From the NCBI GenBank assembly GCA_018780035.1, contig JADMKE010000014.1:73271-137270 (forward strand): a stretch of DNA of 64,000 nt, in the 5' to 3' direction. Both the position numbers and the translations under genes were made by a program. The notes below the pieces were generated by a model, which saw only the letters and a list, made by a program, of their open reading frames with translations, had not been told where the DNA came from and made no database searches. Origin of the DNA: Candidatus Sericytochromatia bacterium (GTDB lineage: Bacteria > Cyanobacteriota > Sericytochromatia > UBA7694). Positions 1 to 64,000 of the stretch are shown piece after piece (position 1 is the first letter of the stretch; each line of letters opens with the position of its first letter).

Positions 1-2723
1 ATCCAGACTATTACGAAGGTATAGAGCATAATCCAATATTTTTTGATCGGATGGCATTTGATTTGCCAAAATTTTTGTTTTTCCTTCATTAAGCTGATAA
101 CGTAACTGGATAAACTCTTGAGCAATAAGCATAAGATGGGACGGTATTTTTAAAATATCCGAAATACCCTCATCTATTTTTTGAATCAATGTCACATTAT
201 TGGTTTTATTAAATAAATCCCTATCTGAATCAGATACTGATAATTTTCGATGCAACTGAGCAAGTTCGTCAATTTGTTTAGCAGTCAAATCAGGGACAGG
301 AATACTTGTAATTTCCTCTGAAGAAAACCGATTACGATCGATTCCCCAGCCTTTACAATTAAAAAACAATAAATATTTCCCTATATTTGAATTTAAATAC
401 AGGGAAAGTGAGCGCAAATAATCTGAATCTTTTACCGGAGCGGATAAACCAATTTGCGCACCTGGGAATAAAAAATCTTGATCGCTATAAGCGGCATAGG
501 CTGGTGTCAAATAAATATGAGGGGCTAATGCTATGTCTAACCCTGATACCACTCCATTGTAATAAAACGCTTGTTTGTTATCCAGAGTTTCAATGGCCAA
601 ACCAGGAACAGTTAAACAAATACGCTTGGGCATTAATTTTGCATTCAGAAGTTGATACGTAGGCATCTCACCGATTAAAACGTTTTGGTAGGTCTTATTT
701 TGTTCGCTGACAACAGAGCGCCCTTGAGAGAGTTTCCATTGACGCGTTGTAATTAAATCTCCAAGGGTCGTTGTGAATATTCTTTTGAATCGCGTCAAAG
801 CTTGTTCATCACGAGAATTTCCCCACAAAGCCTGTTTCCAGATAAAGAAATCACCTGATTCTGCAAGAGATGGATCTATTGTTTTAATCTCATCCTCGTA
901 AAAGGTCAGTGCCCAAATCCGCTTTTGGTCTGTTGAACGATTCAAGGTTTGGTTAATAACAAAAGGCCCAAAATGAATGATCGGAGATTTGATTTGTTCT
1001 GATTTTGCTTTTGAATAAATCAGTGTTGCTGCCCGAGTTTTTGCTCTCCCAGCAAACAGCACATAAGCTAGATTTGAGAAGTTAGTAATCCTTTTAACTT
1101 GGTTTTGATTAAAAAATACTTGACGGTATTTGAAAGAGGTTTGATTAAATAAGCTTGTAGCTTTAATCAGTAAGGCCACACAACCATTTTCTGCCAAGGC
1201 TTCTGTTACACGCCAACTAAAAGCTTCACTGAGACAGTATTGACCAACAGGATATCGGTTGACATTCTTATTTAACCAATCCCAGAAATGAGGTTGATCT
1301 TGTTTTAATTGATTTTTATTGAGTTCAGTCCAAGGCGGATTGCCAATAATCCAATCAAACTTTAAATCGTTTTTCCAAATACTAGCTTGGTCATCAAAAA
1401 AGTCAGCATAGAAGATATTTCGATTATGAAGACATGGGAAACGAAAATCTTTATTTTCATGTAAATCAGGGGCTTCAACATAACTTAAAAGTGTAAGTAA
1501 TAGACTAAACTCAGTTATATAACAAGCTTGCTCAATCAGTTCAACACCATAAATATTTTCTTGTAAGAGCCTACTTAATTTTTGAAGTGTGAGTTTTTTG
1601 CCCTTATTTTTGCGTATTTCTATTTCAATTAAACGGCGATAAGACAAAACCAAAAACACTCCAGAACCACAAGAAGGATCAAGGATTTTCATACCTTTTT
1701 CTAAGGGTTTGACACTGTTTAATTCACAAAGTAAATAATCAGCAACAAATTCACGGGTATAAACGGCTCCAGCATGTTTAGCTTGGCCTTCTGAGTGTAA
1801 GAATTGTTCATAAATCGAAGAGAGCATTTCTATGGGAATACAAGAAAAATCGTAAATTTTAAAATCAGGTAAGACCAATTGACCAGAGACCTGATCACCT
1901 CTAAAAACCGCAGCTACAAAATGAATAAATTCGTCAGCCTTTACACCCAATTCTTGAATGTTTAAAGGAAAAACTTGCCCGTTAAAACGCTGTTCCAAAA
2001 CCATTATCAAGGTTTGCAAAGCTTGGGAAGAGGTCTGATCACCAGTAATATTACTGAGTTTAAGCCCATATTGTGCGAGCCAAGCATCTGTTAGAATTTC
2101 GCGTTCAACCAAATAGTAAATATAAATATATTTCCCAATCAAACAGTGTGCCAACTTGCGTTCAATACCTTTAGAAATGAGGGCATCACTAAGTTCTTTG
2201 AGGCTTTTGAGCAGACGCTGATCTACCCGTTTTTCAGGAGTTACATTTTTGGATTGGGTTTGCCATATACGCCCAGAATCTATTTCATGAGCATAAAAAT
2301 CTTGGAGAGTTCTAGCAATCTCTGCTGCGTTTAGAGCTGACTCAGCTATTGGAGTATCTCGGCTTTGAGGATCTGAATTAAAATCAAAGCCACGATACAC
2401 TTTGACACGCTGAGGAAGAATGATGATAAGAAAAGGAGCTGCACCCAAATTCCAAAGTTTTTGATGAACTTTTCTGGCCTCTTGCTCTGTCTGAGCTTTT
2501 ACGACATGAACAGCAGGACGAGGAGGTAAAAGGGGCACTTGCTCTGATGAGGGAGTGGCACTGGTACGAAAAATGTAAGCACCACAAACATCCACGGTGG
2601 TTTCTTTTTTAAAGACCCGCCAAAGTGGCAAATTAAACTCATCTGCTTTATCTTCAGTTATCCAAGCATCTCCTGAATCAGGAGATGTGTAGCCGAGTTG
2701 TTCCAAAACTTGATTTGGATGCA
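1..2723 (-). CDS. N6-adenine DNA methyltransferase, large single-chain Type IIG (MmeI-like) or BREX PglX-like; partial. ATG at 2723; C-terminus runs past position 1, so at least 907 aa. Not in the ORF track because it has no in-window stop.
   Basis: Hand translation of the minus strand is open from 2723 to position 1. Motif I (K)ILDPSCGSGVFLV at about 1661-1700 and motif IV DWIIGNPPW at about 1331-1357, with about 330 aa N-terminal and at least 300 aa C-terminal to the catalytic core. Region is about 38% GC against about 58% elsewhere. Confidence 0.75.
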
Positions 2724-2954
2724 TGTTCTCACAATTTTGAGGTTGATATTTTTAGCGAACAGAGCAATAAAAGGACGGCTCCAGTCAATTGTAACACGGT
2801 TTTTTTGATGCCTAAACAAAATTTAACATCTAGGATCTTGAAAATTAAACTGTTGTATTCAAAACCTCTTTTAGGCTCTTATTAATTATTGAGTTGTTTT
2901 AAATGCAATACATCTACATTTGTTTATCTGACTCGACTTTTTACCCATAACAGC

Positions 2955-3143
2955 AATATTTGCAGACTTATCTATTTTACGCAAAATGAAGGTTCAGCCA
3001 GTATCCTCCGTTGGCCAAGGGCCTGATAAGAGAGGGCAACAGGAACCCCGCCGGTCCAGGATGGACAAAGGCGGGGTGACTCTTAGCCTGTTGCACGCAG
3101 GACGCGTGCGGCAGGCGGCCCGAACGTCAGGCCCTTGTGCCAA
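2955..3143 (-). repeat. Copy A of a conserved structured element of about 145 nt (GC-rich 16-bp closing stem, conserved ACGTTCGGGCCGCC box, internal hairpins) plus a conserved AT-rich 3' tail, sitting at the GC-content junction
   Basis: Reverse complement of 3001-3143 aligns with 63128-63272: a 5' block ttggcacaagGGCctgacgttcgggccgcc and a 3' block cagGCCcttggccaacgGAGGata; the tails share CTGAA...TTTTGCG...GTCT. The terminal stem carries compensatory changes between the copies. Confidence 0.5.
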
Positions 3144-3459
3144 CCGGAGCCACTAACCACGCTTCTGAAACCCCCATGAACGCCCAAACATGGACACATA
3201 AACACCTCTCGCCAAAGGGAAAAGGCTTTCCCTAGCACCAACACGGCTCGAAAAAAAATCACCCCAAAACACTGGAATATTTCCCCACCCCAATGGTATG
3301 CTCATCTTCAGACAGAGCAGCGCAGAGACAGGTTACTTCGGGATCTGCCGGTTGCAAAACCGTGCTGGTGCAAGTCCAGCTCCTCCGACTTCAACGGGGG
3401 ATGGCGAAAGTAGCAGACGCAGCAGATGTATAGCCCTGGCTCGCTTTTTTCTCTCTGTC

Positions 3460-5355
3460 TTATCCTTCAGCCAGCTCCGCCAATTCCAGCCAGCGCAATT
3501 CTTTGCTTTCGATCTCAGCTTCAAGCTCCCCAAAGGTTGCTGAAAGCTTCTGCAAACTGCCCGCCCCCAAATCACCCGGATTGGCCAGTTCCGCCTCCAT
3601 CTGCTGTTTGCGCGTCTGCAATTGCTCCAGCTCTTGCTCCAGCCCTTCGTACTCTTTTTGCTGCTTGTAACTCAACTTGGGCTTGTTCTCACGGGGTGGC
3701 TTGCGCTCAAGCGGCTTGTCTTCTTTGGATTTGTCTTCTTTGGCCTGTTGACGCAGGGCCTTTTCTTGCTCCTGCTGAGCCAACCAATAATCGGTATAAT
3801 TGCCAGGGAAATAAAGCACCTGGCCGTCGCCCTCAAAGACAAAGAGGTGATTGACCAGGCGGTCCATAAACCAGCGGTCATGCGAGACCACCAGCAAATT
3901 GCCTTTGAAGTCCTGGAGAAAGTCTTCAAGCACCTCAATCGTGGCAATATCCAAATCGTTGGTGGGTTCGTCCAGAATCAAGAAATTGGGATTTTGCAAA
4001 AGTACAGTCAGCAGATACAAGCGCCGCTTTTCACCCCCACTGAGGGTTGAGACTTGGCGCCAATGCACAGGCGCAGGAAAGAGAAAGCGCTCCAGCATCT
4101 GGGCTGCCGTGATCTGGCCCCCGCCGCGCACTGGCAAAACCTCAGCAATTTCTTTGATCACCTCAATCACCCGCTGGTCGTTGCGAAAATGCATATTCTG
4201 CTGGCGGTAATAGGCCAATTCAATGGTCTCCCCAATCACGACTTCGCCCTGATCCAACGGCTGCTCACCCACCAGCAAATTGAGGAAGGTACTTTTGCCG
4301 CTGCCATTGGGGCCCACCACGCCGATGCGGTCGCCTTTGGAGAAGTCATGGCTAAAATCTTTTAAAACCACTTTATCGCCAAAGGCCTTGGCCAGATGGT
4401 GCAATTCGAGAATTTTGCCCCCGAGGCGGGGCATGAGAATATCCAGGCTCAAAGCCCCTTCGCCAGAGACCGATTCCAGTTCATCTTGGAGCGAGAGAAA
4501 GGCCTCGGAGCGGGCCCGCGACTTGGTGCCCCGCGCGCGCGGCTGTTTGCGAAACCAGGCCAATTCGCGCCGGTAGCGGTTGCGGGCCACTTCGGTCTCG
4601 CGGGATTCGCGTTCGAGGCGGGCATATTTTTGCGCCAAATAATCGCTGAAGCCGCCGCTGACCCGGTAGAGTTGTCCCTGTTCGAGTTCGAGAATTTCAT
4701 CGCAGACCGCTTCGAGAAAATAGCGGTCGTGGGTGACCATTAAAAGCGTCATCGACTGGCTGGTCAGGTACTGCTCCAGCCATTCCATCATGTCGAGGTC
4801 GAGGTGGTTGGTGGGCTCATCCAGAATCAAGAAATCCGGGGCATCGAGCAGGGTTTGGGCCAGGGCGATGCGGCGCTTTTGGCCCCCCGACAAAACCGCC
4901 ACAGGCTGTTCCAGGCCATCAATTTTGAGGCGCGAGAGAATCTGCTGGGCCATAACCTGGTAATCCCAGGCATGTAGGCGTTCCACCTCGGCATAAGCCC
5001 GCTGAATTTGCGCGGTGTCTTGGCTTTTCAGCGCCACTTCGTAAGCGTGAATCGCCCTGAGTTCGGGGCGCTCTGAAGCATAAAGCGCCTGCATCACCGT
5101 GTGCTCGGGGTTGAGTTCGGGCTCCTGGGGCAAAAATCCAACGCGAATGTCTCGGGCCCATTCAATCCGGCCCTGATCTGCCGGTTCTTCGCCAGCCAGA
5201 ATGCGAATCAGGGTGGTTTTCCCCGTGCCATTGCGGGCCACCAGCGCCACCCGCTGGCCTTTGCTGAGCGAAAAGGCCACGTCTTTGAACAAAACTTTGT
5301 CATGGTATGCCTTGGACAGGCTGTCTACACGCAGATAAAACACAGGGGCCTCCAA
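3460..5355 (-). CDS. ABC-F family ATPase (tandem ABC domains, Uup/YheS-like, C-terminal coiled coil)
   Basis: Two Walker A motifs (ARNGTGKTTL and GPNGSGKSTF) and two ABC signatures (LSGGQKRRIAL and LSGGEKRRLYL); no transmembrane domain; charged coiled-coil tail. Confidence 0.9.
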   Translation of the reverse strand: MEAPVFYLRVDSLSKAYHDKVLFKDVAFSLSKGQRVALVARNGTGKTTLIRILAGEEPADQGRIEWARDIRVGFLPQEPELNPEHTVMQALYASERPELRAIHAYEVALKSQDTAQIQRAYAEVERLHAWDYQVMAQQILSRLKIDGLEQPVAVLSGGQKRRIALAQTLLDAPDFLILDEPTNHLDLDMMEWLEQYLTSQSMTLLMVTHDRYFLEAVCDEILELEQGQLYRVSGGFSDYLAQKYARLERESRETEVARNRYRRELAWFRKQPRARGTKSRARSEAFLSLQDELESVSGEGALSLDILMPRLGGKILELHHLAKAFGDKVVLKDFSHDFSKGDRIGVVGPNGSGKSTFLNLLVGEQPLDQGEVVIGETIELAYYRQQNMHFRNDQRVIEVIKEIAEVLPVRGGGQITAAQMLERFLFPAPVHWRQVSTLSGGEKRRLYLLTVLLQNPNFLILDEPTNDLDIATIEVLEDFLQDFKGNLLVVSHDRWFMDRLVNHLFVFEGDGQVLYFPGNYTDYWLAQQEQEKALRQQAKEDKSKEDKPLERKPPRENKPKLSYKQQKEYEGLEQELEQLQTRKQQMEAELANPGDLGAGSLQKLSATFGELEAEIESKELRWLELAELAEG

Positions 5356-5489
5356 ATGGGGAATACTCTATTCTGCCACAGGCCAGGAAAGTCAGGGAAA
5401 GATGCAGGCCCAGAACAGGATGAAAACAGGATGAAAACAGGCCCAGAAAAGCCCCCAAAAGAACCACGTAAAAAAATGGCAACCGTATG

Positions 5490-5518
5490 TTGACAATGTT
5501 AACATTAGATGTTTTAAT
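5490..5518 (+). promoter_or_regulatory. Sigma70-like promoter (TTGACA, 17-nt spacer, TTTAAT) with embedded palindrome TGTTAACA, upstream of 5536
   Basis: Read directly: ttgaca atgttaacattagatgt tttaat. Confidence 0.45.
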
Positions 5519-5535
5519 ATTTTTATGAGATAAAA

Positions 5536-6360
5536 ATGCTCTCAAAAACAAACACAACTCAGGTGGACAAAGCAATGGGTGATATCAACAGCTCTTTCGT
5601 CAAACAGCAAATTCAAAACTTGAACCAAGTCAAGCCACAACAAACACAGAACACAGAGAAAAAGCCTGTGGAGTCTTCGATTGGTCAAACTGAATTTCAA
5701 GCGCGCAAAGCCATGTTTGAAAAACAGACATCCCGCGAACCTGAATTGGGACAAGAGATACGTGGACAAGTGGAATCGGGTCTGAATGAGATCAGCGGCG
5801 AAAAACTTCAGAAAAATTTTAAGCTCTTTGAGAGCACATTTATAGGAGATGCCGAAAAGGCAAGCTCTGCTGAACCCCCCTCGTTTCCTGAGCACCCCAA
5901 ACAGGTCCAAATGCCCCAGCATCCCCATGTCGAGGAAATCGACCTTGAAGAAGAGCAAAACGATGGCAAGGAAACCGAAGAATCGCCTTCCTTGACGGTC
6001 AAAGAGCCCTCTCAACCCGTCTCAACAGAAGTAGGAAATGCCGAAATGGCGAGCTCTAATGAGCCACCCCGGCTTCCCCAACACCCCAAACAGATCGAAA
6101 TGCCCCCGCACCCCAAACAGGTCGAGGAAATCAACCTTGAAGAAGAGCAAAACGGTGGAGAGGAAGAACAAACCCTTGAGCAAACAGAGCAGCCCAAAAC
6201 GGAGCAGCCCAACCGGCCGGTAAATGCCAATCACCCACCTAGCTCCCCTCCCGTTATCCATTCTGGCAAAGAAAACCCACTGAATGTATCCGTCAACCCG
6301 CCCAAGCAACCACAACAGTCCGAAGCAGATGTCAACGAAGCCGACGAAGACGAGATGTAA
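5536..6360 (+). CDS. Acidic, Pro/Glu-rich hypothetical protein with two long internal tandem repeats
   Basis: Repeat SSxEPPxxPxHPKQxxMPxHPxVEEIxLEEEQN occurs twice; promoter-like sequence upstream. The antisense ORFs 5542..6015 and 6022..6528 were judged spurious. Confidence 0.55.
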   Translation: MLSKTNTTQVDKAMGDINSSFVKQQIQNLNQVKPQQTQNTEKKPVESSIGQTEFQARKAMFEKQTSREPELGQEIRGQVESGLNEISGEKLQKNFKLFESTFIGDAEKASSAEPPSFPEHPKQVQMPQHPHVEEIDLEEEQNDGKETEESPSLTVKEPSQPVSTEVGNAEMASSNEPPRLPQHPKQIEMPPHPKQVEEINLEEEQNGGEEEQTLEQTEQPKTEQPNRPVNANHPPSSPPVIHSGKENPLNVSVNPPKQPQQSEADVNEADEDEM

Positions 6361-6400
6361 AACGGCAGGAAACCTCTGGTGTCTTGGTTTCCAAAGCTGG

Positions 6401-8200
6401 TTAATTCTGGGCCAAGGCGCAAGCCGCTTCGACTTTGAGCTGACAGGCCTTTTGAAAGCTCTGTTTGGCCTCTGCGCCTTTGCCCGCTTGGGTCTGAATC
6501 TGGCCCAATTGGTACCAAGCGGGGCCATAGTCTGCCTGCAAACTCAGGGCTTTTTCCAGGTCGGTCTGGGCCAGATCGTATTTTTTCTGGTTCAGATAGA
6601 CCTCTGCGCGCGAGCTGAGAATATCTGGCGAGTCGGGAAAGGCCTTGAGCACCGTTGCATATTCGGCCAAGGCCTCTTCATGCCGCCCCGTCCAATTGTA
6701 AATATCTCCACGCATCACATGGGCAGCCAGAACCCGTGGATCGAGTTCGAGAATGCGCGTGGCATCCCCCAGCGCGATCTCGTATTGTTTACTCTGGATC
6801 GCCAAAACCGCCCGCGCTTTAAAGGCCTGCAAAAATTGATTGTCGGCCTTGATGGTGGCAGTATAAGCGGCAATGGCTTTGTCAGGCTGTCCCTGGTTTT
6901 CATGAATCTGGCCGATATAAAAATGGGCAGAGGCATTACCCGGTGCCATTTTTGTAATCCACTCAAAATCTGCCAGGGCCTGGGGAAAATTTTTGAGTTG
7001 GGCATGGGTCAAGCCACGATTGCCATAGGCATCGAGAAAATTTGGCTGCAGCACAATCGCCTGGTCAAAGGCCTGCAGCGCCTGATCAGATTTGCCCATT
7101 TGATTCAGGGCGATGCCACGCAAATTCTGACTTTCGGCACGCTGGGGCTCCAATTTGAGGGCCAGTTCAAAATCCGCGAGGGCTTTAACGGGCTCACGCA
7201 CTTCGAGGTAGAGGCGGCCCCGGCTGTTGAGAATCGCCGCTTGGCTGATCAGCGGAAAATCTGTCGAAACGGGACTTTTGACGCTCAGGGCTTGGCTATA
7301 CGCGGCCAGGGCCTTTTCAAAATCCCCCTGGGCGGCATAGAGGTCGCCCATATTGGTATAGGGATTGGGACTGTCTTGGTGTTTGAGAGAGGCTTGAAAG
7401 CGCTCCAACGCTTTGGTCGGCTGGTTTTGAGCGGCATAGACCAAGCCCTGATTGTTGTAGGCATCGGCCAGATTCGGTTGGTATTTGATCGCCTGTTCAA
7501 AATGGGCCAAGGCCTCAGCATAACGATCCTGGGTATAGTCAATCACGCCGAGATAATTGTAAATCCGGGCATACTCTTGAGGGGTTGCCGGTTTGAACTG
7601 CAGGGCCTGCTTAAAATCTGCTTGGCTGGCCGGGTATTGCCCACGGGTATAATAATAAATGCCACGGGCCGTCAGAATTTCTGGGTTTTTGGGATCGCGT
7701 TTGAGGGCCTGGGTCAAATCTTCCAGGGCACCTTCGTTCTGTTTGAGGATGATCCGCAACAGGCCACGGGTAAGGTAGGCATCGCCATAATTGGGATCGG
7801 CTTTGAGGGCCTGAGTCAGATCTTCGTGGGCCAAGTCCAGCTTGCGCCAGACCATTTGTACCTTGGCTCGGCCATTGAGCGCGGCGGCATGGCTGGGTTT
7901 GAGTTTAAGTGCTTGGTTGAACTGGGCCAGGGCCTTGTCAAATTGATTCAGACCGCCATAGGCCCGCCCCAGGCGCACATAGACTTCGGGATCTTTGGGA
8001 GCCTGTTTGACGGCCTTTTGGCTGAGTTCCAAGGCTTTTTGCCATTGACTGGCCTTGAGGGCCTGATCCGCCGATTGCAACAGAGAAGACGTCGTCACAG
8101 CCGACGGTGTGCTCGGGGCTGCCTGTGCTGGCAGACTGCCCACGCTCCCTGCGGCAGCGATCAAAATACTCAGAACCAATAGGCGTGTCAGTTTTATCAT
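6401..8200 (-). CDS. Secreted TPR-repeat protein
   Basis: N-terminal signal peptide MIKLTRLLVLSILIAAAGSVGSLPAQA; many 34-aa TPR units (e.g. AYNNQGLVYAAQNQPTKALERFQASLK). Confidence 0.8.
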   Translation of the reverse strand: MIKLTRLLVLSILIAAAGSVGSLPAQAAPSTPSAVTTSSLLQSADQALKASQWQKALELSQKAVKQAPKDPEVYVRLGRAYGGLNQFDKALAQFNQALKLKPSHAAALNGRAKVQMVWRKLDLAHEDLTQALKADPNYGDAYLTRGLLRIILKQNEGALEDLTQALKRDPKNPEILTARGIYYYTRGQYPASQADFKQALQFKPATPQEYARIYNYLGVIDYTQDRYAEALAHFEQAIKYQPNLADAYNNQGLVYAAQNQPTKALERFQASLKHQDSPNPYTNMGDLYAAQGDFEKALAAYSQALSVKSPVSTDFPLISQAAILNSRGRLYLEVREPVKALADFELALKLEPQRAESQNLRGIALNQMGKSDQALQAFDQAIVLQPNFLDAYGNRGLTHAQLKNFPQALADFEWITKMAPGNASAHFYIGQIHENQGQPDKAIAAYTATIKADNQFLQAFKARAVLAIQSKQYEIALGDATRILELDPRVLAAHVMRGDIYNWTGRHEEALAEYATVLKAFPDSPDILSSRAEVYLNQKKYDLAQTDLEKALSLQADYGPAWYQLGQIQTQAGKGAEAKQSFQKACQLKVEAACALAQN

Positions 8201-8318
8201 GGGTGCTTACACTTACTCTCTCAGGCTTTCTCTGGCGATTTAATTGCTTCAACCCATTCAAAAAACGGGCGTTCTTACCATGATAACACCCACAGACCCC
8301 GCTCCGGTTTCTGCTACA

Positions 8319-8918
8319 ATGAAAGGCATGAAATCTGTTTTGAGCGGTCTTACCGCTGTTCTTTATACTGTTCTTTGCGCTTCGATGTGGCTCCAGGCGC
8401 AGCCAGCCTTGGCCATTCTGGGCGAAGATTATCTCATGATGCGCACGTATTTCCACAAACCCCGGCGCTATGACTTGGTCCACGAAGCCAAATTTAAAAG
8501 TTTTGCCGAATTGCGCAAAGAAATGCGACCGATTCAGGTCCATTTTTTTGCCAATGCCGAAGGCAAGATCAGCAAAGAATTCTGGAGTGCCGATGCCAGC
8601 CCTTGGACCTTTGCGCAGGCCAATAAAATCCGCGATGCGATCATGCGCCGCAGCCACAGCAATGCCTCGGGCAACAGCCTCGGTCTGACTTGGTATTACA
8701 GCGATGGCGCACGTGTGATGTACCGGGTGATTGGCCATCGCGTGATCAGCATTATGGCTGTCGACAAAGATTTTAACCCAGGGGATCTGGGCAAAATGCC
8801 ACAGTGGTTTGCCCCCCCCACAGCCAAACCCCAATTTCCCAAATATCTGCCGCCCGCTTCCCCGGCAGCACCGGCATCACCGGCTCCCAAGGTCAGCCCA
8901 CCCCCCGCACAGCGATGA
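8319..8918 (+). CDS. Hypothetical secreted protein with Pro-rich C-terminus (start moved to the internal Met before the signal peptide)
   Basis: MKGMKSVLSGLTAVLYTVLCASMWLQAQPALA signal-like N-terminus; the ORF-track start at 8244 is further upstream. Confidence 0.45.
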   Translation: MKGMKSVLSGLTAVLYTVLCASMWLQAQPALAILGEDYLMMRTYFHKPRRYDLVHEAKFKSFAELRKEMRPIQVHFFANAEGKISKEFWSADASPWTFAQANKIRDAIMRRSHSNASGNSLGLTWYYSDGARVMYRVIGHRVISIMAVDKDFNPGDLGKMPQWFAPPTAKPQFPKYLPPASPAAPASPAPKVSPPPAQR

Positions 8919-10090
8919 AAAAAAATACATGGCTTTTGTCTGGCCTGACCTATCTCAGTGTGTGTTTTTCAGCATCAGCACAACCAGCCTGTTTGGGGCT
9001 GCTGACCGAGTGGCAACTCAAGGCCCCTTCTCCCGATGGCCAGCCAACCCTGCGCCAGCAATTTCTAGAACGCCTGTCTCAGGAACATCAGGCGCTGGGC
9101 CTGGAGCAAGACGAACCCCAGATTTTGCCTCACCCAGAGCCAGATCATCTGCTGCTGTGCCTCAGCGAAAATTACCCATTGCAACAGGTCTTGGCCAAGC
9201 GCACACAAAAAACGAGCTTTGAAATACGCCAGCCGATGAAAGGCACCCAAGACCTCTGGGCCCCCACAGGCCTAAACGGCTCTCAACTGCTCAAAGTTAC
9301 CCTCAAAAAGCAACCCGAACCCGGTGTCGAAATCCAATTGGATCACAATGGCAGCCAGATTCTGGCCCGTTTGAGTGTGGGGCTGCTCAAACAAAAAATG
9401 GGGCTGTATTTAAATGATCAGCTTTTAATCGCCCCCCAGGTCATGTCGGTCATTACCGATGGGCGGCTGCTGATCACGGGTTCAGATCTCAAAGCCATGG
9501 AAAACCTGACCCAAAAACTCGAATCGGCCCGTGTGCCTTGGCCCGATGTAGAATTATTGGCCATTGAAGTGGGGCACTACAGCGAGGCTTTGCAAAAACA
9601 AGTGCCGCCAGAGTTGCAGGCTTTGCTCAACAAACACTATCCCGGCTGGTATTTTCCCAAAGGCCTCAGTGCCATTGGCCAAGAACATTATTGGCAAGAA
9701 AAACCGCCTTTTACGCCGTTTTGGATCAAGGGCGATTTTGATGGCAATGGTACAGAGGACCACGCCCTGCAAATTCGCCACCCCGCAGGCAAAGAGGGCA
9801 GCCGCGAGACCATTCTGATCCTGAGTCGCCAAAAAACCAGCCAAAATCCAGGCCAAAATGCCAGCCAATATCTGCCACTGGTTTTGGACCAGACGGCCCC
9901 CGCCCATTTGCGCACGTGGTCGGGAGCCTCGCTCTGGCGTTACCCCGCAGGCAGCAAAATGTACAATTTTGAAACCAAAAAAGAATTTATCACAACCCAC
10001 GAAACATTGGCTCTGCACTTTTGGGGCAAAGGGGCCATGGCCTGGACGTGGGACGGAACCAGCTTTAAAGACATCACCATTGGCGACTGA
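8915..10090 (+). CDS. Hypothetical secreted protein/lipoprotein (start at MKKNTWLL; ATGA overlap with the upstream gene)
   Basis: Signal peptide MKKNTWLLSGLTYLSVCFSASA; 4-nt overlap with the previous stop suggests translational coupling. Confidence 0.5.
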   Translation: MKKNTWLLSGLTYLSVCFSASAQPACLGLLTEWQLKAPSPDGQPTLRQQFLERLSQEHQALGLEQDEPQILPHPEPDHLLLCLSENYPLQQVLAKRTQKTSFEIRQPMKGTQDLWAPTGLNGSQLLKVTLKKQPEPGVEIQLDHNGSQILARLSVGLLKQKMGLYLNDQLLIAPQVMSVITDGRLLITGSDLKAMENLTQKLESARVPWPDVELLAIEVGHYSEALQKQVPPELQALLNKHYPGWYFPKGLSAIGQEHYWQEKPPFTPFWIKGDFDGNGTEDHALQIRHPAGKEGSRETILILSRQKTSQNPGQNASQYLPLVLDQTAPAHLRTWSGASLWRYPAGSKMYNFETKKEFITTHETLALHFWGKGAMAWTWDGTSFKDITIGD

Positions 10091-50784: not shown

Positions 50785-50931
50785 AAATTCTCACCATATA
50801 TATGGTCACGCTTTAAGCAAAGTATGAGTGTCCAGAACACAATAACACTTTTCTCCCCGATCGCTAGTCCCTGCTGTCACTCTTGTTCCCTATCAGGCAG
50901 AATATAGAGACCCATTTTGTCAAATCGTGGC

Positions 50932-51792
50932 TCAGTCCAGCTTAAATCCTTGAGCTATATAAAATTTGAAAAGAGGGGTTTTCATAAATTCAGGAGCAAA
51001 AGATCCATAAAATCTCAGAAGAGCTTCTGTTTTTGATTTTATTGCTGGATATGTACTCGCTAATTCAATGATATGCTCAGGCTGAGAAAAGACCATGCCT
51101 GCAAAAGTATTAAAATCTTCTTCTAGGTCAGAAGTCGAGTACTGGCTTAAAAAACCGATTTTGAGCAAAGCGGTTTCTTCTTCTGTTTTAAATCCTTCCT
51201 TCAGAGCTTCAGTTCCTGGATTTTCCTTTGTTTCATAGACATACTGAAAGTTTTTGGGGTTAATTTTTCGCCACTCAGAAACTGGGAAATTAAATTTTTT
51301 TAATAAAATAGAGCTGAATTCATGATGAAATGAATCCAAAACAAAGAGACGGTTATCTGTGGATGTTTGATCAGAGAAATTGGCAATAAACAAATCCCCC
51401 TTACCCCTCTCATCATAAAAAGCATATGTTGCCCCATACAATTGGCCATAGAGGTAAAGTCTTTTTGAAATCGCAATGGCACTCAGGCTTTCACTTATAA
51501 CTTTCTTGGGGTAGTTTCCCAATGCTTCTTTTAATGTTTCACAGAAAACAGCCCCGCTGCCAATATCTATAGATTCCGAGTGGGCATCCATAGGGGGTTC
51601 TCTCCATGAGGAATAGAAGACAGAATCGGGCTTCTCATAAACAATTTTAATGGCATAGTCTTTTTCTAAGCCAGATACGCAGCCCTCAAAAGAGGATGTA
51701 TCCCCTTTGCTTTGGGGGATACATCCTAAAAAGAAAAAACAGAATAGCAAAAACCGAGCACGAACACGCTTTAACATGAGAGGGTCTGGCAC
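50932..51792 (-). CDS. Low-GC hypothetical lipoprotein
   Basis: Lipobox-like FFLGC; low GC. Confidence 0.45.
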   Translation of the reverse strand: MPDPLMLKRVRARFLLFCFFFLGCIPQSKGDTSSFEGCVSGLEKDYAIKIVYEKPDSVFYSSWREPPMDAHSESIDIGSGAVFCETLKEALGNYPKKVISESLSAIAISKRLYLYGQLYGATYAFYDERGKGDLFIANFSDQTSTDNRLFVLDSFHHEFSSILLKKFNFPVSEWRKINPKNFQYVYETKENPGTEALKEGFKTEEETALLKIGFLSQYSTSDLEEDFNTFAGMVFSQPEHIIELASTYPAIKSKTEALLRFYGSFAPEFMKTPLFKFYIAQGFKLD

Positions 51793-52251
51793 TCAGTCTT
51801 CTGAATTTTTAGTCAATTTGTTTGGGCTTAGGAATCGGTCCTGGTACAGGAGGCTTGGGTGTTCCACCAGAAGGCGGCTTCTCAGGTTTGGGTTGTCATC
51901 TGGTTTTGAATTAACAGACACGTTCACTTTTTTACCCGGCTTACGTGGACGGCGGCGGATCTCTAAAAACCGCTTTTTTTCCTCGTTGGGGAGTGTGTCA
52001 TAAAAGCTCTTGACCAACTCCATAAAGGGACGGGTTAAAAAGTTTTTGAGGTTGTATTGGTAAATTCGGGTTGTGCCCAGTCTTTCAGAAACGAGAATCC
52101 CTGCCCGTTCATAGCGTTCGAGCTGCTTCTGCACCTGACTCACGGAGATCTCAAAATCATGGGCAATGGCTGAAGCGTAGGTCTTCCCATAATGATGAAG
52201 ATGCAAAAATACCCGCATGGCAGTGGGACTGCCTAAAATAGTGTCTAACAT
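51793..52251 (-). CDS. Winged-helix transcriptional regulator (low-GC island)
   Basis: MRVFLHLHHYGKTYASAIAHDFEISVSQVQKQLERYERAGIL, a wHTH pattern. Confidence 0.5.
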   Translation of the reverse strand: MLDTILGSPTAMRVFLHLHHYGKTYASAIAHDFEISVSQVQKQLERYERAGILVSERLGTTRIYQYNLKNFLTRPFMELVKSFYDTLPNEEKKRFLEIRRRPRKPGKKVNVSVNSKPDDNPNLRSRLLVEHPSLLYQDRFLSPNKLTKNSED

Positions 52252-52285
52252 AGACTTAGCATAAGGGAATCTGGGCAGATTTGTA

Positions 52286-52323
52286 AACCTACTTAATAGG
52301 TTAATCCACCTACTTAATAGGTT
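52286..52323. promoter_or_regulatory. Two direct copies of a 16-bp palindromic operator (AACCTACTTAATAGGTT) in the divergent promoter region
   Basis: aacctacttaataggtt (5 nt) acctacttaataggtt. Confidence 0.5.
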
Positions 52324-52424
52324 GATTTTATTAAAGAAGTTTTATTTTTTGTTCAAGTCATTTCGAATATTTCGATTAAAATGTTATGATACGGACGAAC
52401 AGCTATCAAGTATCATTGTGAATA

Positions 52425-52901
52425 TTGAGAGGGATGAGTATGACAGGTGCCCTTGCTGAATTGATGAAGCCGACCGAAGCTGAATCTCAACAGGCCAAAG
52501 AGACCGGTCGTCTCTTGGCTCGTCTCCTGCCTAAGCACTCTGAAGATCTACAACTCCAAGCAACGGATGTTCAGGGACAGAAACAAGCGATTCTTTTGCC
52601 TGCCTCAGCTGTCAAACTACTGGTTGCTCTGCTTGCTGAGATGGCTCAAGGCCATGCGGTTACACTGGTTCCCTATCATGCAGAATTAACCACTCAGCAA
52701 GCAGCGGATTTTTTAAATGTTTCGAGGCCCTATCTGGTGAAGCTCCTTGAAAGAGGGGAAATGCCCTTTCATAAAACGGGCAAGCATCGCCGGGTCCGCT
52801 TTGAGGATCTTCTTGTTTATCAGCAGAAGCTGAGAGAGGCCCGCTCCCTGGCTTTAGATCAGCTGACCGCTGAAGCCCAAGAGCTGGATCTCGGATATTG
52901 A
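52425..52901 (+). CDS. HTH (excisionase/MerR-like) DNA-binding antitoxin paired with a PIN toxin
   Basis: LTTQQAADFLNVSRPYLVKLLERGEMPFHKTGKHRRVRFEDL HTH; gene pair separated by 6 nt. Confidence 0.6.
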   Translation: MRGMSMTGALAELMKPTEAESQQAKETGRLLARLLPKHSEDLQLQATDVQGQKQAILLPASAVKLLVALLAEMAQGHAVTLVPYHAELTTQQAADFLNVSRPYLVKLLERGEMPFHKTGKHRRVRFEDLLVYQQKLREARSLALDQLTAEAQELDLGY

Positions 52902-52907
52902 ATTAGA

Positions 52908-53474
52908 GTGGTCTTTTCTGTTTTATTTGATGCCTGTGTATTTTTCCCAGCTCCGTTGCGGGATTTTTTACTGACTTTGGCAGAAACCGAGCTATTTCGA
53001 GCCAGGTGGACAGATCAGATTCACGAAGAATGGACCCGGAATTTGCTTCTACGAAGGCCGGATTTGAATCCTGAACGCCTCAAGCAGACCTGCCGGACAA
53101 TGAATCAATTCTTCCCTGATTCTCTGATTCAAGGGTATGAAGATTTGATTCCCCATCTGACCCTCCCGGATCAGAACGACCGCCATGTCCTGGCCGCAGC
53201 GATTCGGGGCCGCTGTGAAATCATTGTGACCCTCAATCTGAAGGATTTTCCGCCATCAGTCTTAAATGAATATGATATCGAAGCCCAACATCCTGACGAT
53301 TTTGTACTCAATACCATGGAGCTGGGAATGGATTCTGTGCTCTCAGCGATACGAAAACAGCGTGCCCGACTCAAAAATCCCCCCAAAACAGCGGAAGAAT
53401 ATTTAGAAACCTTGGAACGACAGGGCTTACCCATGACTTATCAGAGGCTGAAAGGCTATGTTGAGCTGATTTAA
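52908..53474 (+). CDS. PIN-domain nuclease toxin
   Basis: VLFDACVFFPA (first acidic residue), further conserved D/E spaced as in PIN domains; pairing with the upstream HTH gene. Confidence 0.65.
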   Translation: MVFSVLFDACVFFPAPLRDFLLTLAETELFRARWTDQIHEEWTRNLLLRRPDLNPERLKQTCRTMNQFFPDSLIQGYEDLIPHLTLPDQNDRHVLAAAIRGRCEIIVTLNLKDFPPSVLNEYDIEAQHPDDFVLNTMELGMDSVLSAIRKQRARLKNPPKTAEEYLETLERQGLPMTYQRLKGYVELI

Positions 53475-54649
53475 TCCTCACTGAGAGGCGAAATCTGACG
53501 AATGAGCTGATTGCCTTTATCTGCGACTAATAGAAGTCCCCTTTGATCAAGAGTTAGCCCCCAAGGTTCATTCAAGGAAGCTAAATCACCTCGGCACTTG
53601 TCTCTTGGAGGACAGGTAGAACGTCCAACCAAGCTGATCAGCTCAGTTCTGTCGGCGCTTAATTTAAAAATCTGGTGACTAAAAGAATCTGAAATATATA
53701 AAATGTCATTTTTATCCACAGCAATCCCTGTTGGCTGACTGAATGGCGAAGGATAGCCTTTGGGGTTTGTTTTTAAACCAGGGGCAATGACTGTGACAAC
53801 CTCTCTATTTCTGGTAATTTTTCGGAGGCTGCGATTACCGGAGTCTGTCACATAAATTTCGCCTTTCGTGTTAATCGCCAAACCAATTGGGGAGTCAAAA
53901 CGGGCGTCAAGGCCTTTACCATCTTTGAGACCTCTTTCCTTTTGAGCAGAACCCACAAACGTTGTTAATACACCTTGCTCAATCTTGCGAATACAATGAT
54001 TGTCTGTATCCGCAATGAAAATGACACCATCTTCATTAATCACAATTCCTTGTGGGGCTTTGAGTTGAGCGGGTTCTCCTTCAAGTTTCAGTACGGGTGT
54101 TTTTACCTCTACAACTTCGTCAGAAGTATTCGAAGAATTTAAATACCTAATTTGTTTTGAAAGAATGGAGGTACGTGCTGTATCTGGACCTAAGACAATG
54201 ATAATATTGTTATCTTTATCTATGGCCAGAGTTGGGACAATATCCCGTGGTTTTATGTACCCACCCCCAAAATCTCCTGGTCTCTTGGTATTGGTGAGTA
54301 TCTTTGCAAATCCAGTTGATGGTAAAGTTTTTGTATCCCCATTTTCCAAATCTATTTGATAAACAATGTCTGAGCGTTCTCCCCCAACTGTGGAATAGAG
54401 TTTATTGTCCTTATCTAAAGCAATCCATGTTGGTTTTTCTAAGGACTGATTGGTCTTTAAAGCTGTTATATTTACTTTATCCGCCCGCATCAAATGACTC
54501 TCAACCCATTGATTGCGAGCAGTAGGTACTAACAAGGAATAAGGGTGTTTCTGTACTGCGAATTTTTCTTCATTTAAATTGATGCTGCACGCCAATAAAC
54601 CACTGAATAATGAGAATAAACCCATCCATTTGAATAAGTGAAATGGCAT
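53471..54649 (-). CDS. NHL-repeat lipoprotein (beta-propeller)
   Basis: Repeated GxxxFxxPxGIAVDxxGNIYVxD units; lipobox LLAC. Confidence 0.75.
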   Translation of the reverse strand: MPFHLFKWMGLFSLFSGLLACSINLNEEKFAVQKHPYSLLVPTARNQWVESHLMRADKVNITALKTNQSLEKPTWIALDKDNKLYSTVGGERSDIVYQIDLENGDTKTLPSTGFAKILTNTKRPGDFGGGYIKPRDIVPTLAIDKDNNIIIVLGPDTARTSILSKQIRYLNSSNTSDEVVEVKTPVLKLEGEPAQLKAPQGIVINEDGVIFIADTDNHCIRKIEQGVLTTFVGSAQKERGLKDGKGLDARFDSPIGLAINTKGEIYVTDSGNRSLRKITRNREVVTVIAPGLKTNPKGYPSPFSQPTGIAVDKNDILYISDSFSHQIFKLSADRTELISLVGRSTCPPRDKCRGDLASLNEPWGLTLDQRGLLLVADKGNQLIRQISPLSED

Positions 54650-54666
54650 CTCAGCCCCCCCCTATT

Positions 54667-56646
54667 TTAAGCAAAGTACTGCGTCCAAAAGGCATTGGTC
54701 AGCAGGCGGTTCTTGGAGATCACCCGCAGCGTGCTGCCGGTGTGCTTTTCGATCAGGCGGTAGTTTTGTGGCTCGACTTTGAGCTCGGTTTCGAGCGTAT
54801 TGGTCAGCAATTGCTCCAACATGCGCGTGCAGGCCTCGGCTGAGCGCACGACCAAAATGCCATTGAGCACCCCCGAAGAGAGAATCACCTGCAAGGCCAG
54901 CGGGTGCACCTCTTTAAAGGTATGTGCCCGGCGCTCAAAAAACAGCGCGGCCTGCACCAATTTGTCGATCAAGACCCCACGCAAATTCTCGGGCAGCAGG
55001 GGCCGCGCCGTTGGCCGCGAGCGCAGGGTCAATTCATCGAGCCAAGCACGGGCCTGAATCTGACTGTCGGGATCGAGCTCTTTGATCTCGCCATAGAGGT
55101 CAAAATCTGCCCAATGCTGTTCGATCAACTCGGCAAGGGCCTGTGGGGCCAATTTTTGCAATTGGGCGGTTAAAATCTTGCCGACCATGCCCTGCCGATC
55201 GAGGTCTTCATCCAGTTCCAGCTTCAAATCCTGCATCCAGACGCGCAGGGAATGTTCGTGTTCGCGCATGAGCGATTCGCTGTTGATCCCCTCTGCCGCT
55301 GAAAAGAGGCGGGGCACGTAGACGATCACGGGTTTGCCCTGGCCCAGTGCCACCGAGGCCTCGGAGTCTTTGCCAAAGGTATCCCCTTTTTGGGCCATAT
55401 AAATGGTCAAGCTGGCGCGTTTGAGCATCAGGGCCTCGACCAGGCCTTTGGCTACCCGGTCGGAGATCCACGAGAGGGTGGGATTAAAATAGCGCAGGTG
55501 CAAAGGCGCAATCCGGGGATCGTTAAAAATCGTCTCAACAAAGGTATTCACCGAGATAAAATCCGCCCGCTCGCGCATGGAAGTGGCGATGTAGACGTCC
55601 ATAAAGGGTTCGGTGAGATAAGCCGAAAGGTTTTGCTGGCCCATTTCTTGGGTTTCTTCGATCCGGGCCAGATCTTCGTCTTCGGGCGCCAGCCGGGCGG
55701 CTTCGCGCCGCACCTCGTCGGGGTCGACCTTGTTAAACAGGGTCTCTTCGATTTCAAGATCGGAGTCAAATTTGCGCAAGAGCGTCTGAATTCTGTGCAG
55801 TTTTTTGCTGGCAAAGAGCAAAATACTGCGCTGCACGTCTTCTTCGAGCCAAGTCGCCAACTCCAATAATTTGCTGTGCAACTCATGGCGCTCACGGTTT
55901 TCCCGGCGCACGCGCTCAGCAGAGATATACCCCAAATCGTCGAGGCGCTCGCGGGCAATCGGGCGAATCGTCTCAAAGGGGCGACGCAGGGTATACATCA
56001 TCTTGCTGATCGTCTCCAGCGGGGCCAAGGCATCAGCCAAAGCCACTTCTTCACAATTGGAGAGGGTTTTGTAAGCTTTGCGGAAAGAGCCATAAATGCG
56101 AATCGCCGTGGTCTGAAAGCGGCGCACCCGCTCTTCAAATTGGGCCACCGAGGCAAAATTACTCTGGCCGAGAAAACGCCGATAAAAAGCAGGGGTCACG
56201 CTGCGTTCGCCGTAAAAGGTCAGCAGGGCGTTAAAATGGGCGTGGGCCTGTACCATGCTCATCTGCACCTGGGCATCGAGCACATACTCGCTGATCGCTT
56301 CGATCAACATGCCCTGTGAGAGCGGGTCGAGGGTTTCCAGATTCAGACTTTTGCCGAGCATTTCCGACAAAGCCGCTTCAAAGGCAATGGCACTGAGATA
56401 ATCATCGTGGGTGACCACGCGCCAATCGGGGTCTTCCCCCATGTCTAAGACATCCGCCAGCAGGGTGAGGTCTTCGGGGCTGGGCATGCGCCGCCCCTGC
56501 TCCAAAAGGGTAATCACATTGCGACTGCGGCCCATGTGATCGGCCAATTTTTTTTGAGTCAAATTGTGACGCAAGCGGTATTTCAGTACAATATCCCCAA
56601 TCCGGCGAATGCCGGGCTGGATCTCTTCGGGACCGTGTTCAGCCAT
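54667..56646 (-). CDS. 659-aa XRE-family HTH protein with a nucleoside-2-deoxyribosyltransferase-like (NDT/SLOG-like Rossmann) domain and a C-terminal helical domain
   Basis: HTH LRHNLTQKKLADHMGRSRNVITLLEQGRRMPSPEDLTLLADVL; mid-region VYIATSMRERADF...ASLTIYMAQKGDTFGKDSEASVALGQGKPVIVYVP resembles the NDT-family pattern (DxGTAxExGYAxAxGKPV). Confidence 0.55.
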   Translation of the reverse strand: MAEHGPEEIQPGIRRIGDIVLKYRLRHNLTQKKLADHMGRSRNVITLLEQGRRMPSPEDLTLLADVLDMGEDPDWRVVTHDDYLSAIAFEAALSEMLGKSLNLETLDPLSQGMLIEAISEYVLDAQVQMSMVQAHAHFNALLTFYGERSVTPAFYRRFLGQSNFASVAQFEERVRRFQTTAIRIYGSFRKAYKTLSNCEEVALADALAPLETISKMMYTLRRPFETIRPIARERLDDLGYISAERVRRENRERHELHSKLLELATWLEEDVQRSILLFASKKLHRIQTLLRKFDSDLEIEETLFNKVDPDEVRREAARLAPEDEDLARIEETQEMGQQNLSAYLTEPFMDVYIATSMRERADFISVNTFVETIFNDPRIAPLHLRYFNPTLSWISDRVAKGLVEALMLKRASLTIYMAQKGDTFGKDSEASVALGQGKPVIVYVPRLFSAAEGINSESLMREHEHSLRVWMQDLKLELDEDLDRQGMVGKILTAQLQKLAPQALAELIEQHWADFDLYGEIKELDPDSQIQARAWLDELTLRSRPTARPLLPENLRGVLIDKLVQAALFFERRAHTFKEVHPLALQVILSSGVLNGILVVRSAEACTRMLEQLLTNTLETELKVEPQNYRLIEKHTGSTLRVISKNRLLTNAFWTQYFA

Positions 56647-62943: not shown

Positions 62944-63127
62944 AGGTCATCCTGTTTAAATCTGAATATTCCTAGCATTGTAACGTATTTTGGGGGTAAT
63001 GCTAGTTTGTGGGGGAGCCGTTGAAGGGCTTGTGCTGTTTTGGAGGTTCTCTTGGCGGGCCCAGGGGCTTGCTTTTTGCTTGGAAGGGCAATTCGTTTTG
63101 GCGTGGCGAAAAGGGCAATCGGCTCGT

Positions 63128-63315
63128 TTGGCACAAGCCCCTGACGTTCGGGCCGCCCCTTCGACTCCGCTCAGGGAGCGGCAGGCAAGAGCTGGTGTTC
63201 TGAGCGAAGTCGGTGTGGGGTCCTGAGCGAAGTCGAAGGACTCTTTTCAGGGGCTTGGCCAACGAAGATAACAACTGAATTATGAGTTTTTTGCGATTTA
63301 ACTTGTCTACTTAAT
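63128..63315 (+). repeat. Copy B of the conserved structured element (inverted relative to copy A), again ending at a high-GC/low-GC junction
   Basis: See copy A. The closing stem here is aagCCCctg/cagGGGctt against aagGGCctg/cagGCCctt in copy A, i.e. compensatory. Confidence 0.5.
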
Positions 63316-64000
63316 AATTTATCAACCAATTTACAACTTTTTCTGATGCAGGTGATTTCAAACCAAAACTATTCAAGGTTTCAATTCGTTTTAAAATCAA
63401 ATAGAGGTGATTTGGATATGTCTTTTGGTATTTTTCAAAATAGAAATAAGCCAAATCCAGATTATTCTTGAGCATATGGGCCAAAGCAAGATTTAGATGG
63501 GCATAACTCGCCTCAGGCTCTAAGTTTAAAACGATTTCACAGGCTTCAATCGATAAATCAATTTCATCTGTAAAGAGGTAAACCCAGGCCAATAATAAGT
63601 AGAGCATTTGGTTGTGATGATTGGATTTGAATGCAGCCACTAAATTTTGACGCGCTTCTTGAAAGTGTTGCAGGGATGTCAATACACGACCAAGGCCAGC
63701 GTAAATATATTCACTCTTTTCAGGTTCTGCAGCATGAAAACGTTGAAACATATGAATGGCTTTCTCTGCATTGTGCTCAGCAAGTAAGGAATGCCCCAAA
63801 CCCAAATAGGCTTGGGAATTTTCTCGATTGACCAGCAATGACATTTCAAAATCGGCTTGGGCCGAAGCCGTTTGTCTTAAGCTTAAATAGATGATTCCCC
63901 GTTGAACGTAGAAATGGGATAAATCTGTTTCTCCCCTTCTGTAGGCGCTCAACTCCAGGGCCTGATGCATAAACTCAAGCGCAGTCTCATTTTCTCCAAA
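63311..64000 (-). CDS. TPR-repeat protein, lower GC; reading frame is open to the window end, so the N-terminus probably lies beyond 64000
   Basis: TPR-like 34-aa units (AYLGLGHSLLAEHNAEKAIHMFQRF...); no in-frame stop between 63970 and 64000 on the minus strand. Confidence 0.65.
   Translation of the reverse strand, partial: FGENETALEFMHQALELSAYRRGETDLSHFYVQRGIIYLSLRQTASAQADFEMSLLVNRENSQAYLGLGHSLLAEHNAEKAIHMFQRFHAAEPEKSEYIYAGLGRVLTSLQHFQEARQNLVAAFKSNHHNQMLYLLLAWVYLFTDEIDLSIEACEIVLNLEPEASYAHLNLALAHMLKNNLDLAYFYFEKYQKTYPNHLYLILKRIETLNSFGLKSPASEKVVNWLINY

Follow-up and report, generated by a model that had tools for sequence, protein, structure and literature searches.

The question raised by this locus is what kind of element stands in two inverted copies beside low-GC DNA in a 64,000-nucleotide (nt) stretch of a Candidatus Sericytochromatia genome (GenBank assembly GCA_018780035.1, contig JADMKE010000014.1, positions 73,271 to 137,270), here called the window. 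An earlier inspection of the letters alone, here called the original prediction, had described a structured element of about 145 nt and offered three readings of it: a small structured RNA gene, an attachment site used for island integration, or the conserved end of a mobile element family. Closer analysis revealed that the two copies, here named A and B, are members of a previously undescribed, low-copy family of ~150-nt multi-hairpin repeats that is found only in one small lineage of nonphotosynthetic relatives of cyanobacteria, the Blackallbacteria. We read the family as a clade-specific, modular, palindromic, noncoding structured repeat, similar in kind to ERIC, BOX, and Correia repeats, that borders recombination-prone islands, and put the probability of this reading at roughly 0.5.

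The core of copy A runs from 3152 to 3002 on the minus strand, with the motif TTGGC starting at 3143, and the core of copy B covers 63119 to 63271 on the plus strand, with TTGGC starting at 63128. A 30-nt pattern, TTGGCACAAGnnnCTGACGTTCGGGCCGCC, matches exactly twice in the 64 kb, compared to 0.00 matches expected from shuffles. Three segments are common to both copies: TTGGCACAAGnnnCTG and then ACGTTCGGGCCGCC at the 5' end, a stretch of pyrimidines, and CAGnnnCTTGGCCAA at the 3' end. Their ends pair and form the long closing stem that had been described earlier, here with a bulged A and an extension of a further 5 bp (CUCCG/CGGAG) past an unpaired G. The compensatory base changes reported for this stem were also confirmed, GGC/GCC in A versus CCC/GGG in B being a true flip of two pairs. 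The RNA folds reach -89.2 kcal/mol for copy A (z = -6.2 versus shuffles) and -84.8 kcal/mol for copy B (z = -7.0), and the covariance model R1 scores 167 bits on copy A (E = 1.4e-42) and 50 bits on copy B (E = 3e-11). The 45 nt of conserved AT-rich 3' flank that had been proposed as a further common part turned out to be a chance resemblance: the best local alignment contains TTTTGCG only, and 49% of shuffles equal it (p ~0.49). The CTGAA beside A is locus-specific DNA common to its orthologues and lies outside the island.

Database searches were extended from these two copies to related genomes and metagenomes, whose loci and contigs are labeled L001 to L029. An exact-pattern scan that took one genome per species returned 16 loci, all of them in four metagenome-assembled genomes (MAGs) labeled Candidatus Sericytochromatia or Blackallbacteria. 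A metagenome scan added one true copy (L017); a second match, L018, was rejected as chance, as it lies inside a coding region resembling a cupredoxin gene. Further, slightly diverged copies adjoining the first ones were recovered by profile and covariance-model searches, and the copy number is at least 4 to 7 per MAG, with the family as a whole put at roughly 5 to 10 copies per genome. No copies were found in the viral contigs, plasmids, or phages scanned. The genes flanking the element in the window are 92 to 97% identical to those of the other element-bearing genomes, and copies are syntenic in all four to six element-bearing genomes compared. The nearest sisters, Blackallbacteria CG17 and a JGI contig, have no copy within ~20 kb of the same genes; ABC-F is 86% and LspA 65 to 75% identical in the sister genomes. 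Copies are missing from these sister species, but the whole region differs there. A literature search returned no paper on repeats or RNAs of this lineage.

Copy A is canonical (151 nt, 3002 to 3152, minus strand), consisting of the stem P1, an internal loop, the hairpins P2 and P3, and a return strand. On the strand chosen in the original prediction (minus at A and plus at B; here called the predicted strand), canonical copies begin with a poorly conserved, G/T-rich stretch of ~120 nt that ends in a semiconserved GGGTAATCGG-like sequence. In A, this extension (3153 to 3270, minus strand) is C-poor and lies on the side of the core genes, with the other strand being C/A-rich. It is followed by the P1 5' arm, CTCCG-g-TTGGC-a-CAAGnnnCTG, which in A reads CTCCG-g-TTGGC-a-CAAGGGCCTG (3128 to 3149), the G and the A being extrahelical. 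The adjoining box (3117 to 3127) supplies ACGTTC as the 5' side of an asymmetric internal loop and GGGC, which pairs with GCCC at 3034 to 3037; as originally noted, it is conserved, and we found it nearly invariant across 13 aligned copies. Next come hairpin P2 with the tip R-UCC/UCG-U (3086 to 3116 in A, tip G-UCC-U), a short linker, and the long hairpin P3 with the tip CA-UCC/UCG-UG (3046 to 3076 in A, tip CA-UCC-UG). The return strand (3006 to 3037 in A) contains GCCC, the loop TCTCTTWT (TCTCTTAT in A, a pyrimidine loop), and the P1 3' arm (CAGGCCCTTGGCCAACGGAG in A). The P1 arms have at least 20 paired positions and are near-invariant across copies, resembling in this the terminal inverted repeats of miniature inverted-repeat transposable elements (MITEs); an extension of conserved composition lies outside the 5' arm, and the arms may not be terminal.

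The structure, computed by RNAalifold from an alignment of the 13 canonical copies (paralogues), has 46 base pairs, 18 of which are altered on both sides. Shuffled alignments gave 9.6 ± 1.8 such pairs, with none of 500 reaching 18, and slid controls gave 4 to 9. Paired cells amounted to 93.3%, compared to 85.4 ± 0.8% in shuffles. In P1, some paralogues have C-G and others G-C at two positions (columns 20/137 and 21/136), and the GGG/CCC helix within the internal loop shows one switch from G-C to A-U (columns 32/123, in L011p). Compensatory changes in P2 affect columns 38/67, 41/64, 42/63, 46/59, and 48/57, and those in P3 affect helices 6 to 8. The family is structured and shows genuine covariation, and the description of a structured, repeated element holds. 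A conserved reading frame was considered and rejected: short open reading frames (ORFs) run across the element, but its indels and the pattern of compensatory changes exclude such a frame.

Comparison of the copies further revealed that they are modular and mosaic, with interior hairpins shuffled between paralogues. P2 of copy A equals P2 of L011m and L016, while A's own orthologues, L008 and L019, carry another P2. An optional 67-nt module of two hairpins, X, sits between P2 and P3 or after P3 and is polymorphic between orthologous copies (L006 versus L014, L015 versus L002, and L007p versus L013p); it was not found outside elements in ~370 kb of collected sequence. Copy B, L001, and the truncated L009 share an aberrant interior, built of an 18-nt motif that is also present outside elements. 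In B, the closing stem, box, and 3' strand are as in A, with the P1 5' arm and box ACGTTCGGGCCGCC at 63124 to 63157 and the P1 3' arm CAGGGGCTTGGCCAACGAAG at 63248 to 63267 (both plus strand). The interior between them (63158 to 63239) harbors CCTGAGCGRAGTCGAAGG at 63158 to 63175 (minus) and at 63222 to 63239 (plus), two matches where 0.05 are expected, and a degenerate third copy at ~63199 to 63215. The internal hairpins had been described as equal in size and different in sequence, which holds only with a qualification: A has the canonical interior with two hairpins tipped R-UCC/UCG-U, and the interior of B is built of three copies of the 18-nt CCTGAGCGRAGTCGAAGG. Like ERIC and BOX repeats, the family is noncoding, intergenic, imperfectly palindromic, and dispersed in several copies with optional internal modules. 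As a separate observation, CCTGAGCGRAGTCGAAGG (18 to 20 nt) is a short repeat in its own right that occurs in B-type elements, at 3570 to 3589 of L012, in the 3' flanks of L015 and L002, and inside a coding region of L011.

Convergent inverted pairs of copies were found at three syntenic loci. One lies between ABC-F and an AraC/GGDEF block, another between a 319-amino-acid (aa) gene and lspA, and the third was seen in L007 and L013. Paired copies lie at 12198(+)/16167(-) in L019, 4946(+)/5840(-) in L011, 1798(+)/4749(-) in L023, 1537(+)/3103(-) in L007, and 1990(+)/3205(-) in L013; L024 also has a pair, and in L005 the far copy is partial. The cargo between paired copies measures 0.6 to 3.7 kb and is different in nearly every genome, even among strains that are 95 to 97% identical in the flanks. 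At all six of six borders, the 3' end of the element on the predicted strand points toward the cargo. The association with borders of foreign-looking DNA that the two window copies had suggested is supported.

At the ABC-F locus, the left variable island of the window (1 to 2992, minus strand, GC ~0.37) carries a type IIG restriction-modification gene (Eco57I / N6_Mtase / MmeI_Mtase) that crosses the window edge, whereas L019 and L008 have two membrane proteins without assigned function plus PIN/PhdYeFM, and L005 has HEAT-repeat proteins. At the lspA locus, the right variable island of the window (63272 to 64000, minus strand, GC ~0.38) begins with a TPR-repeat gene (63311 to 63970) and shows no DNA homology to the cargo of L023, L027, or L011; L011 carries Mrr, L023 and L024 an AHH nuclease with Imm11, and L027 VWA/PP2C/kinase genes. 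Both window islands extend past the window edges. In L023 (3266 to 4395) and L024 (1486 to 2582), strains that are 97% identical to the window, the AHH-nuclease toxin and the Imm11-type immunity gene at the lspA locus make up a polymorphic toxin cassette between two repeat copies. Islands at one locus have partly matching content, including that of the relative L022, which lacks the element; piecemeal turnover at an old hot spot explains this overlap more readily than whole cassettes being transferred. The genes adjacent to the element follow no orientation rule, about half of them reading toward it and half away on either side. In a separate observation, several contigs from independent Logan and JGI assemblies break off inside the element at their starts (L025, L026, L028, L029, and L024). 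Such breaks are expected if a repeat with a strain-variable neighbor disrupts short-read assembly, and the element accounts for the breaks at these positions.

Breakpoints were located by comparing closely related strains. At A, homology to L008, L019, and L005 passes through the element and 18 nt beyond the closing stem (2993/2992), and other strain pairs at the same ABC-F locus diverge 37 or 55 nt past the stem. At B, the strains L023 to L026 match the window with 97% identity over 3.1 kb. This homology ends at 63156, directly after the box, and everything beyond it (interior, 3' arm, and cargo) is different in these strains, which places the exchange point inside element B. The borders are not cut at one fixed point, yet the conserved 5' segment is used. 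Low-GC DNA had been thought to begin right at the 3' end of the element; GC content does drop beside both copies (from ~0.55 to 0.37 at A and from 0.54 to 0.38 at B), and the variable DNA starts 18 nt past the stem in A and inside the element in B.

We also compared the two strands of the element. The strand opposite to the predicted one folds better in 17 of 19 copies, by 3 to 19 kcal/mol, and 8 of 10 copies have the more negative z-score on it, shuffle means being alike on both strands. Minimum-energy folds contain 21 distinct G-U positions on the opposite strand versus 8 on the predicted strand. The copies that deviate from this preference are B-type copies. If the element acts as RNA, the better-folding strand of the canonical copies in these fold models is the one opposite to the original choice.

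The extension on the core-gene side is skewed in composition as well. On the predicted strand, mean G is 0.34 and mean C is 0.15 across 22 copies (80-nt stretch), with values of 0.35 and 0.15 in the 80 nt upstream of A and of 0.38 and 0.17 upstream of B, where the G/T-rich extension lies on the lspA side (62963 to 63118, plus strand; G-C skew of +0.24 over 62963 to 63115). Only 0.7% of 80-nt segments in the 64 kb match this skew, and the ~120-nt skew recurs at independent loci. Read on the strand that exits the island, the 80 nt after the fold have a mean C of 0.34 and a mean G of 0.15 in 22 copies. A better fold followed by a C-rich, G-poor tail on the outgoing strand is the composition expected of a Rho loading site, and this is suggestive, though only suggestive, of such sites on transcripts leaving the islands. 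Sigma-70 promoters and intrinsic terminators were not predicted above shuffle expectation at the element itself, and inspection of the aligned flanks by eye yielded no common -10 or -35 element on either strand. Most 5' flanks (3153 to 3270, minus, and 62963 to 63118, plus, in the window) contain TTTTGG(G)G runs and several tracts of three to five G residues, for which a G-quadruplex on that strand is conceivable. A Chi-like motif in the G/T-rich flank was considered as well; the only recurring one, TTTTGG(G), occurs in 8 of 13 flanks, a count that lies at the top of what shuffles give, and we make no claim for it.

No known RNA family accounts for the element. Rfam 15 gave no match in the whole window at gathering thresholds, and a permissive search around A (E ≤ 10) reached at best 11.8 to 16.4 bits against thresholds of 35 to 100, in agreement with the earlier failure to fit it to tRNA, tmRNA, RNase P, SRP, or 6S RNA; ARAGORN likewise found no tRNA or tmRNA. 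A hammerhead-like core was rejected, as CUGACGU and CUGAUAAG on the two strands miss the conserved core, a third stem is lacking, and Rfam is silent. Retrons, IS110 bridge RNAs, and TnpB/IscB guide RNAs were set aside, since no reverse transcriptase, recombinase, or nuclease gene adjoins any copy.

Among the explanations other than the structured repeat, an independently transcribed family of small RNA genes (sibling small RNAs or a protein-binding RNA), for which the island association would be secondary, is unlikely. The conserved fold, its internal loop, and the triloops of the hairpins would in that case bind a protein or mRNA targets. Strong covariation with loops more conserved than stems, the one better-folding strand with its additional G-U pairs, the strand-specific unstructured tail adjoining the fold, and the syntenic positions across species would all suit such genes, but neither strand shows a conserved promoter or an intrinsic terminator, the copies have no preferred orientation toward neighboring genes, and the family is dispersed at seven or more loci within a very narrow clade. 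Copy B and L001, with their scrambled interiors, fold better on the other strand. The tips of the better-folding strand, CA-GGA-UG, resemble CsrA-binding hairpins, yet about half of the hairpins have CGA in place of GGA, among them the two hairpins of A's orthologue L008, which speaks against a CsrB/RsmZ-like CsrA sponge. The hairpins also show a weak likeness to Bacillaceae-1 (RF01690), the reverse complement of which has been proposed as a CsrA binder (PMC4333381), but the match scores only 14.6 bits against a threshold of 35 (E = 3.6). A border module that is purpose-built for foreign DNA, acting as a structured insulator or as a break-and-recombine site in inverted pairs around hypervariable cassettes of conflict genes, strikes us as distinctly unlikely. 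Cassette transcripts would in that case fold into the multi-hairpin and be stopped by the C-rich tail then exposed. In another version, the hairpin would be cleaved as DNA, and the outward G/T-rich flanks would act in a Chi-like manner and shield the core genome. Defense and toxin genes could then be swapped at fixed sites with the neighboring core genes undisturbed. To our knowledge, no such dedicated border cis-element has been described in bacteria.

A folded-DNA or duplex site for a recombinase encoded elsewhere, comparable to attC hairpins or inverted pdif sites and serving cassette exchange or inversion, is quite improbable. The convergent inverted pairs do flank discrete cargo at fixed loci, and the element shares with attC a stem in which one strand has two extrahelical bases, along with a distal structure that varies. 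The segment of highest conservation, 30 nt made up of the P1 5' arm and box, coincides with the point where homology breaks off in B and with the left boundary of P2, the swapped module, in A; the arms contain the palindrome TTGGCCAA. Cargo junctions, however, lie at variable distances, the cargo is not common to different loci, and its partial overlap within a locus is what piecemeal gain and loss would produce. The termini, 5'-GTTGGC...GCCAAC-3', are the opposite of the attC pattern and miss its consensus. No integrase or other recombinase adjoins any of the ~30 copies in Pfam scans of the cargo and in the gene tables of nine island versions, and genes for an integrase, transposase, reverse transcriptase, or nuclease do not occur with any consistency near the copies. 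The sole recombinase-related match in any island is a 164-aa ORF in L027 (685 to 1179) with the serine-recombinase "Recombinase" domain PF07508; it is fragment-like and sits where the cargo of that strain ends, ~8 kb away from the copy on the lspA side. That integrase-bearing islands use a small RNA gene as their attachment site, in the manner of tRNA or tmRNA genes, is scarcely credible and was not borne out. In A and B alike, low-GC DNA does begin at the same end of the element or close to it, but none of the islands seen encodes an integrase, complete cargos of 0.6 to 3.7 kb included, and islands are closed on their other side by a full copy in inverted orientation instead of a direct partial repeat. 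The crossover position is not fixed, with junctions 18, 37, or 55 nt past the stem or inside the element, and evidence for an RNA gene is lacking.

The preferred reading, a structured repeat bordering recombination-prone islands, implies the following course of events. Copies would have spread once in the ancestor of the small clade, would now be homogenized in patches by gene conversion, and would persist as fixed inverted borders of accessory islands prone to recombination. The conserved arms may supply short homology for crossovers, and the long hairpins possibly supply breakage points. Because the two borders are mutually inverted, recombination between them would invert the island and not delete it. 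A role at the RNA level is possible in addition: outgoing island transcripts would carry the more stable strand followed by the C-rich, G-poor tail and could meet a barrier to read-through into core genes. The strand asymmetries in fold and composition give no more than a hint of such an insulator.

Several results weigh against this reading. Target-site duplications, searched as direct repeats of 3 to 8 nt at offsets of 0 to 140 nt (5') and 0 to 40 nt (3') in 14 copies, were not found, and the only direct repeat to recur at the boundaries is CGG, a trivial case that forms part of the stem. A clean single-copy presence/absence polymorphism was not seen at any orthologous site, only the internal X module being polymorphic, so that mobility is inferred only from dispersal. 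The copy number is low for a MITE, and the sole transposase remnant in ~480 kb of collected sequence is an unrelated IS630-like fragment. The relative L022, which lacks the element, has an island with partly homologous content at the ABC-F position, and the hot spot is therefore independent of the element. Three solo loci have conserved neighbors on both sides, and tblastx detected no cargo common to different loci. No U-tract follows the structure on either strand. Finally, the covariation could partly reflect templated correction of quasi-palindromes and not selection; because such correction can also yield it, covariation among paralogues is weaker proof of RNA function than covariation among orthologues. 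Of the three initial readings, the conserved end of a mobile element family came closest, but target duplications and a linked transposase are missing, and the positions are syntenic rather than polymorphic. The most economical classification places the copies with repeats of the ERIC/BOX/Correia type, apart from MITEs because target duplications are absent and mobility is unproven.

Sericytochromatia are uncultured sisters of the photosynthetic cyanobacteria, and we know of almost nothing about their genome dynamics. The family described here is a low-copy structured repeat that marks both edges of islands that change between near-identical strains; among the island genes are those for restriction, toxin immunity, and toxin-antitoxin systems. 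Should the link be causal, a short cis-element would be able to create or insulate a hot spot for turnover of defense genes. In practical terms, the covariance model R1 provides a marker with which such hot spots can be found.

Other parts of the window are also variable. A second low-GC island (10911 to 13771, GC 0.34 to 0.41) is missing from L019 and is not flanked by the structured repeat. It contains IS630-like transposase fragments (DDE_3 at 10965 to 11297 and HTH_29 at 11720 to 12118, both minus strand), and these fragments (10965 to 12118) have no ends in common with the element. Within 5407 to 6396, an ORF (5536 to 6360) encodes a low-complexity, internally repeated, acidic, proline-rich protein without a Pfam match and stands where L019 has an HTH-containing segment (8015 to 9937). 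The region from 50900 to 55000 (GC 0.41 to 0.46) comprises an HTH_17/PIN_3 pair (52425 to 53474), a putative zinc metallopeptidase, an HTH_20 protein, and a protein with NHL repeats; L023 and L024 also have the HTH_17/PIN_3 genes, though the neighborhood of these genes differs among strains.

Comparison with known systems places the family near several of them. Bacillaceae-1 resembles the element in its two consecutive hairpins with the tips GUCCUG and CAUCCUG and in the uncertainty over which strand is functional, but it is without the closing stem, the box, and the extension, and half of the element's tips are UCG instead of UCC. Integron attC sites occur in direct orientation, with the integrase adjoining, and have the core consensus RYYYAAC ... 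GTTRRRY. Like the element, they are associated with gene cassettes, are recognized by structure more than by sequence, have a stem whose extrahelical bases lie on one strand, and vary in their distal structure; the arms of the element, 5'-GTTGGCA ... GGCCAAC-3', are arranged in reverse and miss this consensus, and its copies form inverted pairs with no intI in view. Closer parallels are found among small noncoding repeats. Longer forms of ERIC carry an extra ~70 bp inserted internally at defined sites, and ERIC positions are conserved between strains. ERIC is also an intergenic, imperfect palindrome of ~130 to 150 nt with low to moderate copy number that is found in either gene orientation and in plasticity regions, and it has a terminal TA and target duplications (PMC3184786). 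The branched fold with at least two internal hairpins, the one-sided G/T-rich extension, and the inverted pairs around variable cargo are features that ERIC lacks; the element, in turn, has no target duplications and no sequence similarity to ERIC, and occurs in a different phylum. In BOX of Streptococcus pneumoniae, which is likewise noncoding with a stable predicted RNA fold, conserved 5' and 3' modules pair around variable internal modules. BOX exceeds 100 copies per genome, has an internal module in tandem repeat, and is thought to be mobilized by insertion sequences (PMC3184786), whereas the element has few, syntenic copies, and its optional X is a two-hairpin insert at two alternative junctions. 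Integron mobilization units and MITE-flanked integrons, in which two MITE copies surround cargo, resemble the inverted pairs in that two small noncoding repeats bracket cargo without a transposase of its own (PMC3184786). These units transpose as a whole, on plasmids and with target duplications, whereas the borders formed by the element are fixed in the chromosome without duplications, and it is the cargo between them that changes.

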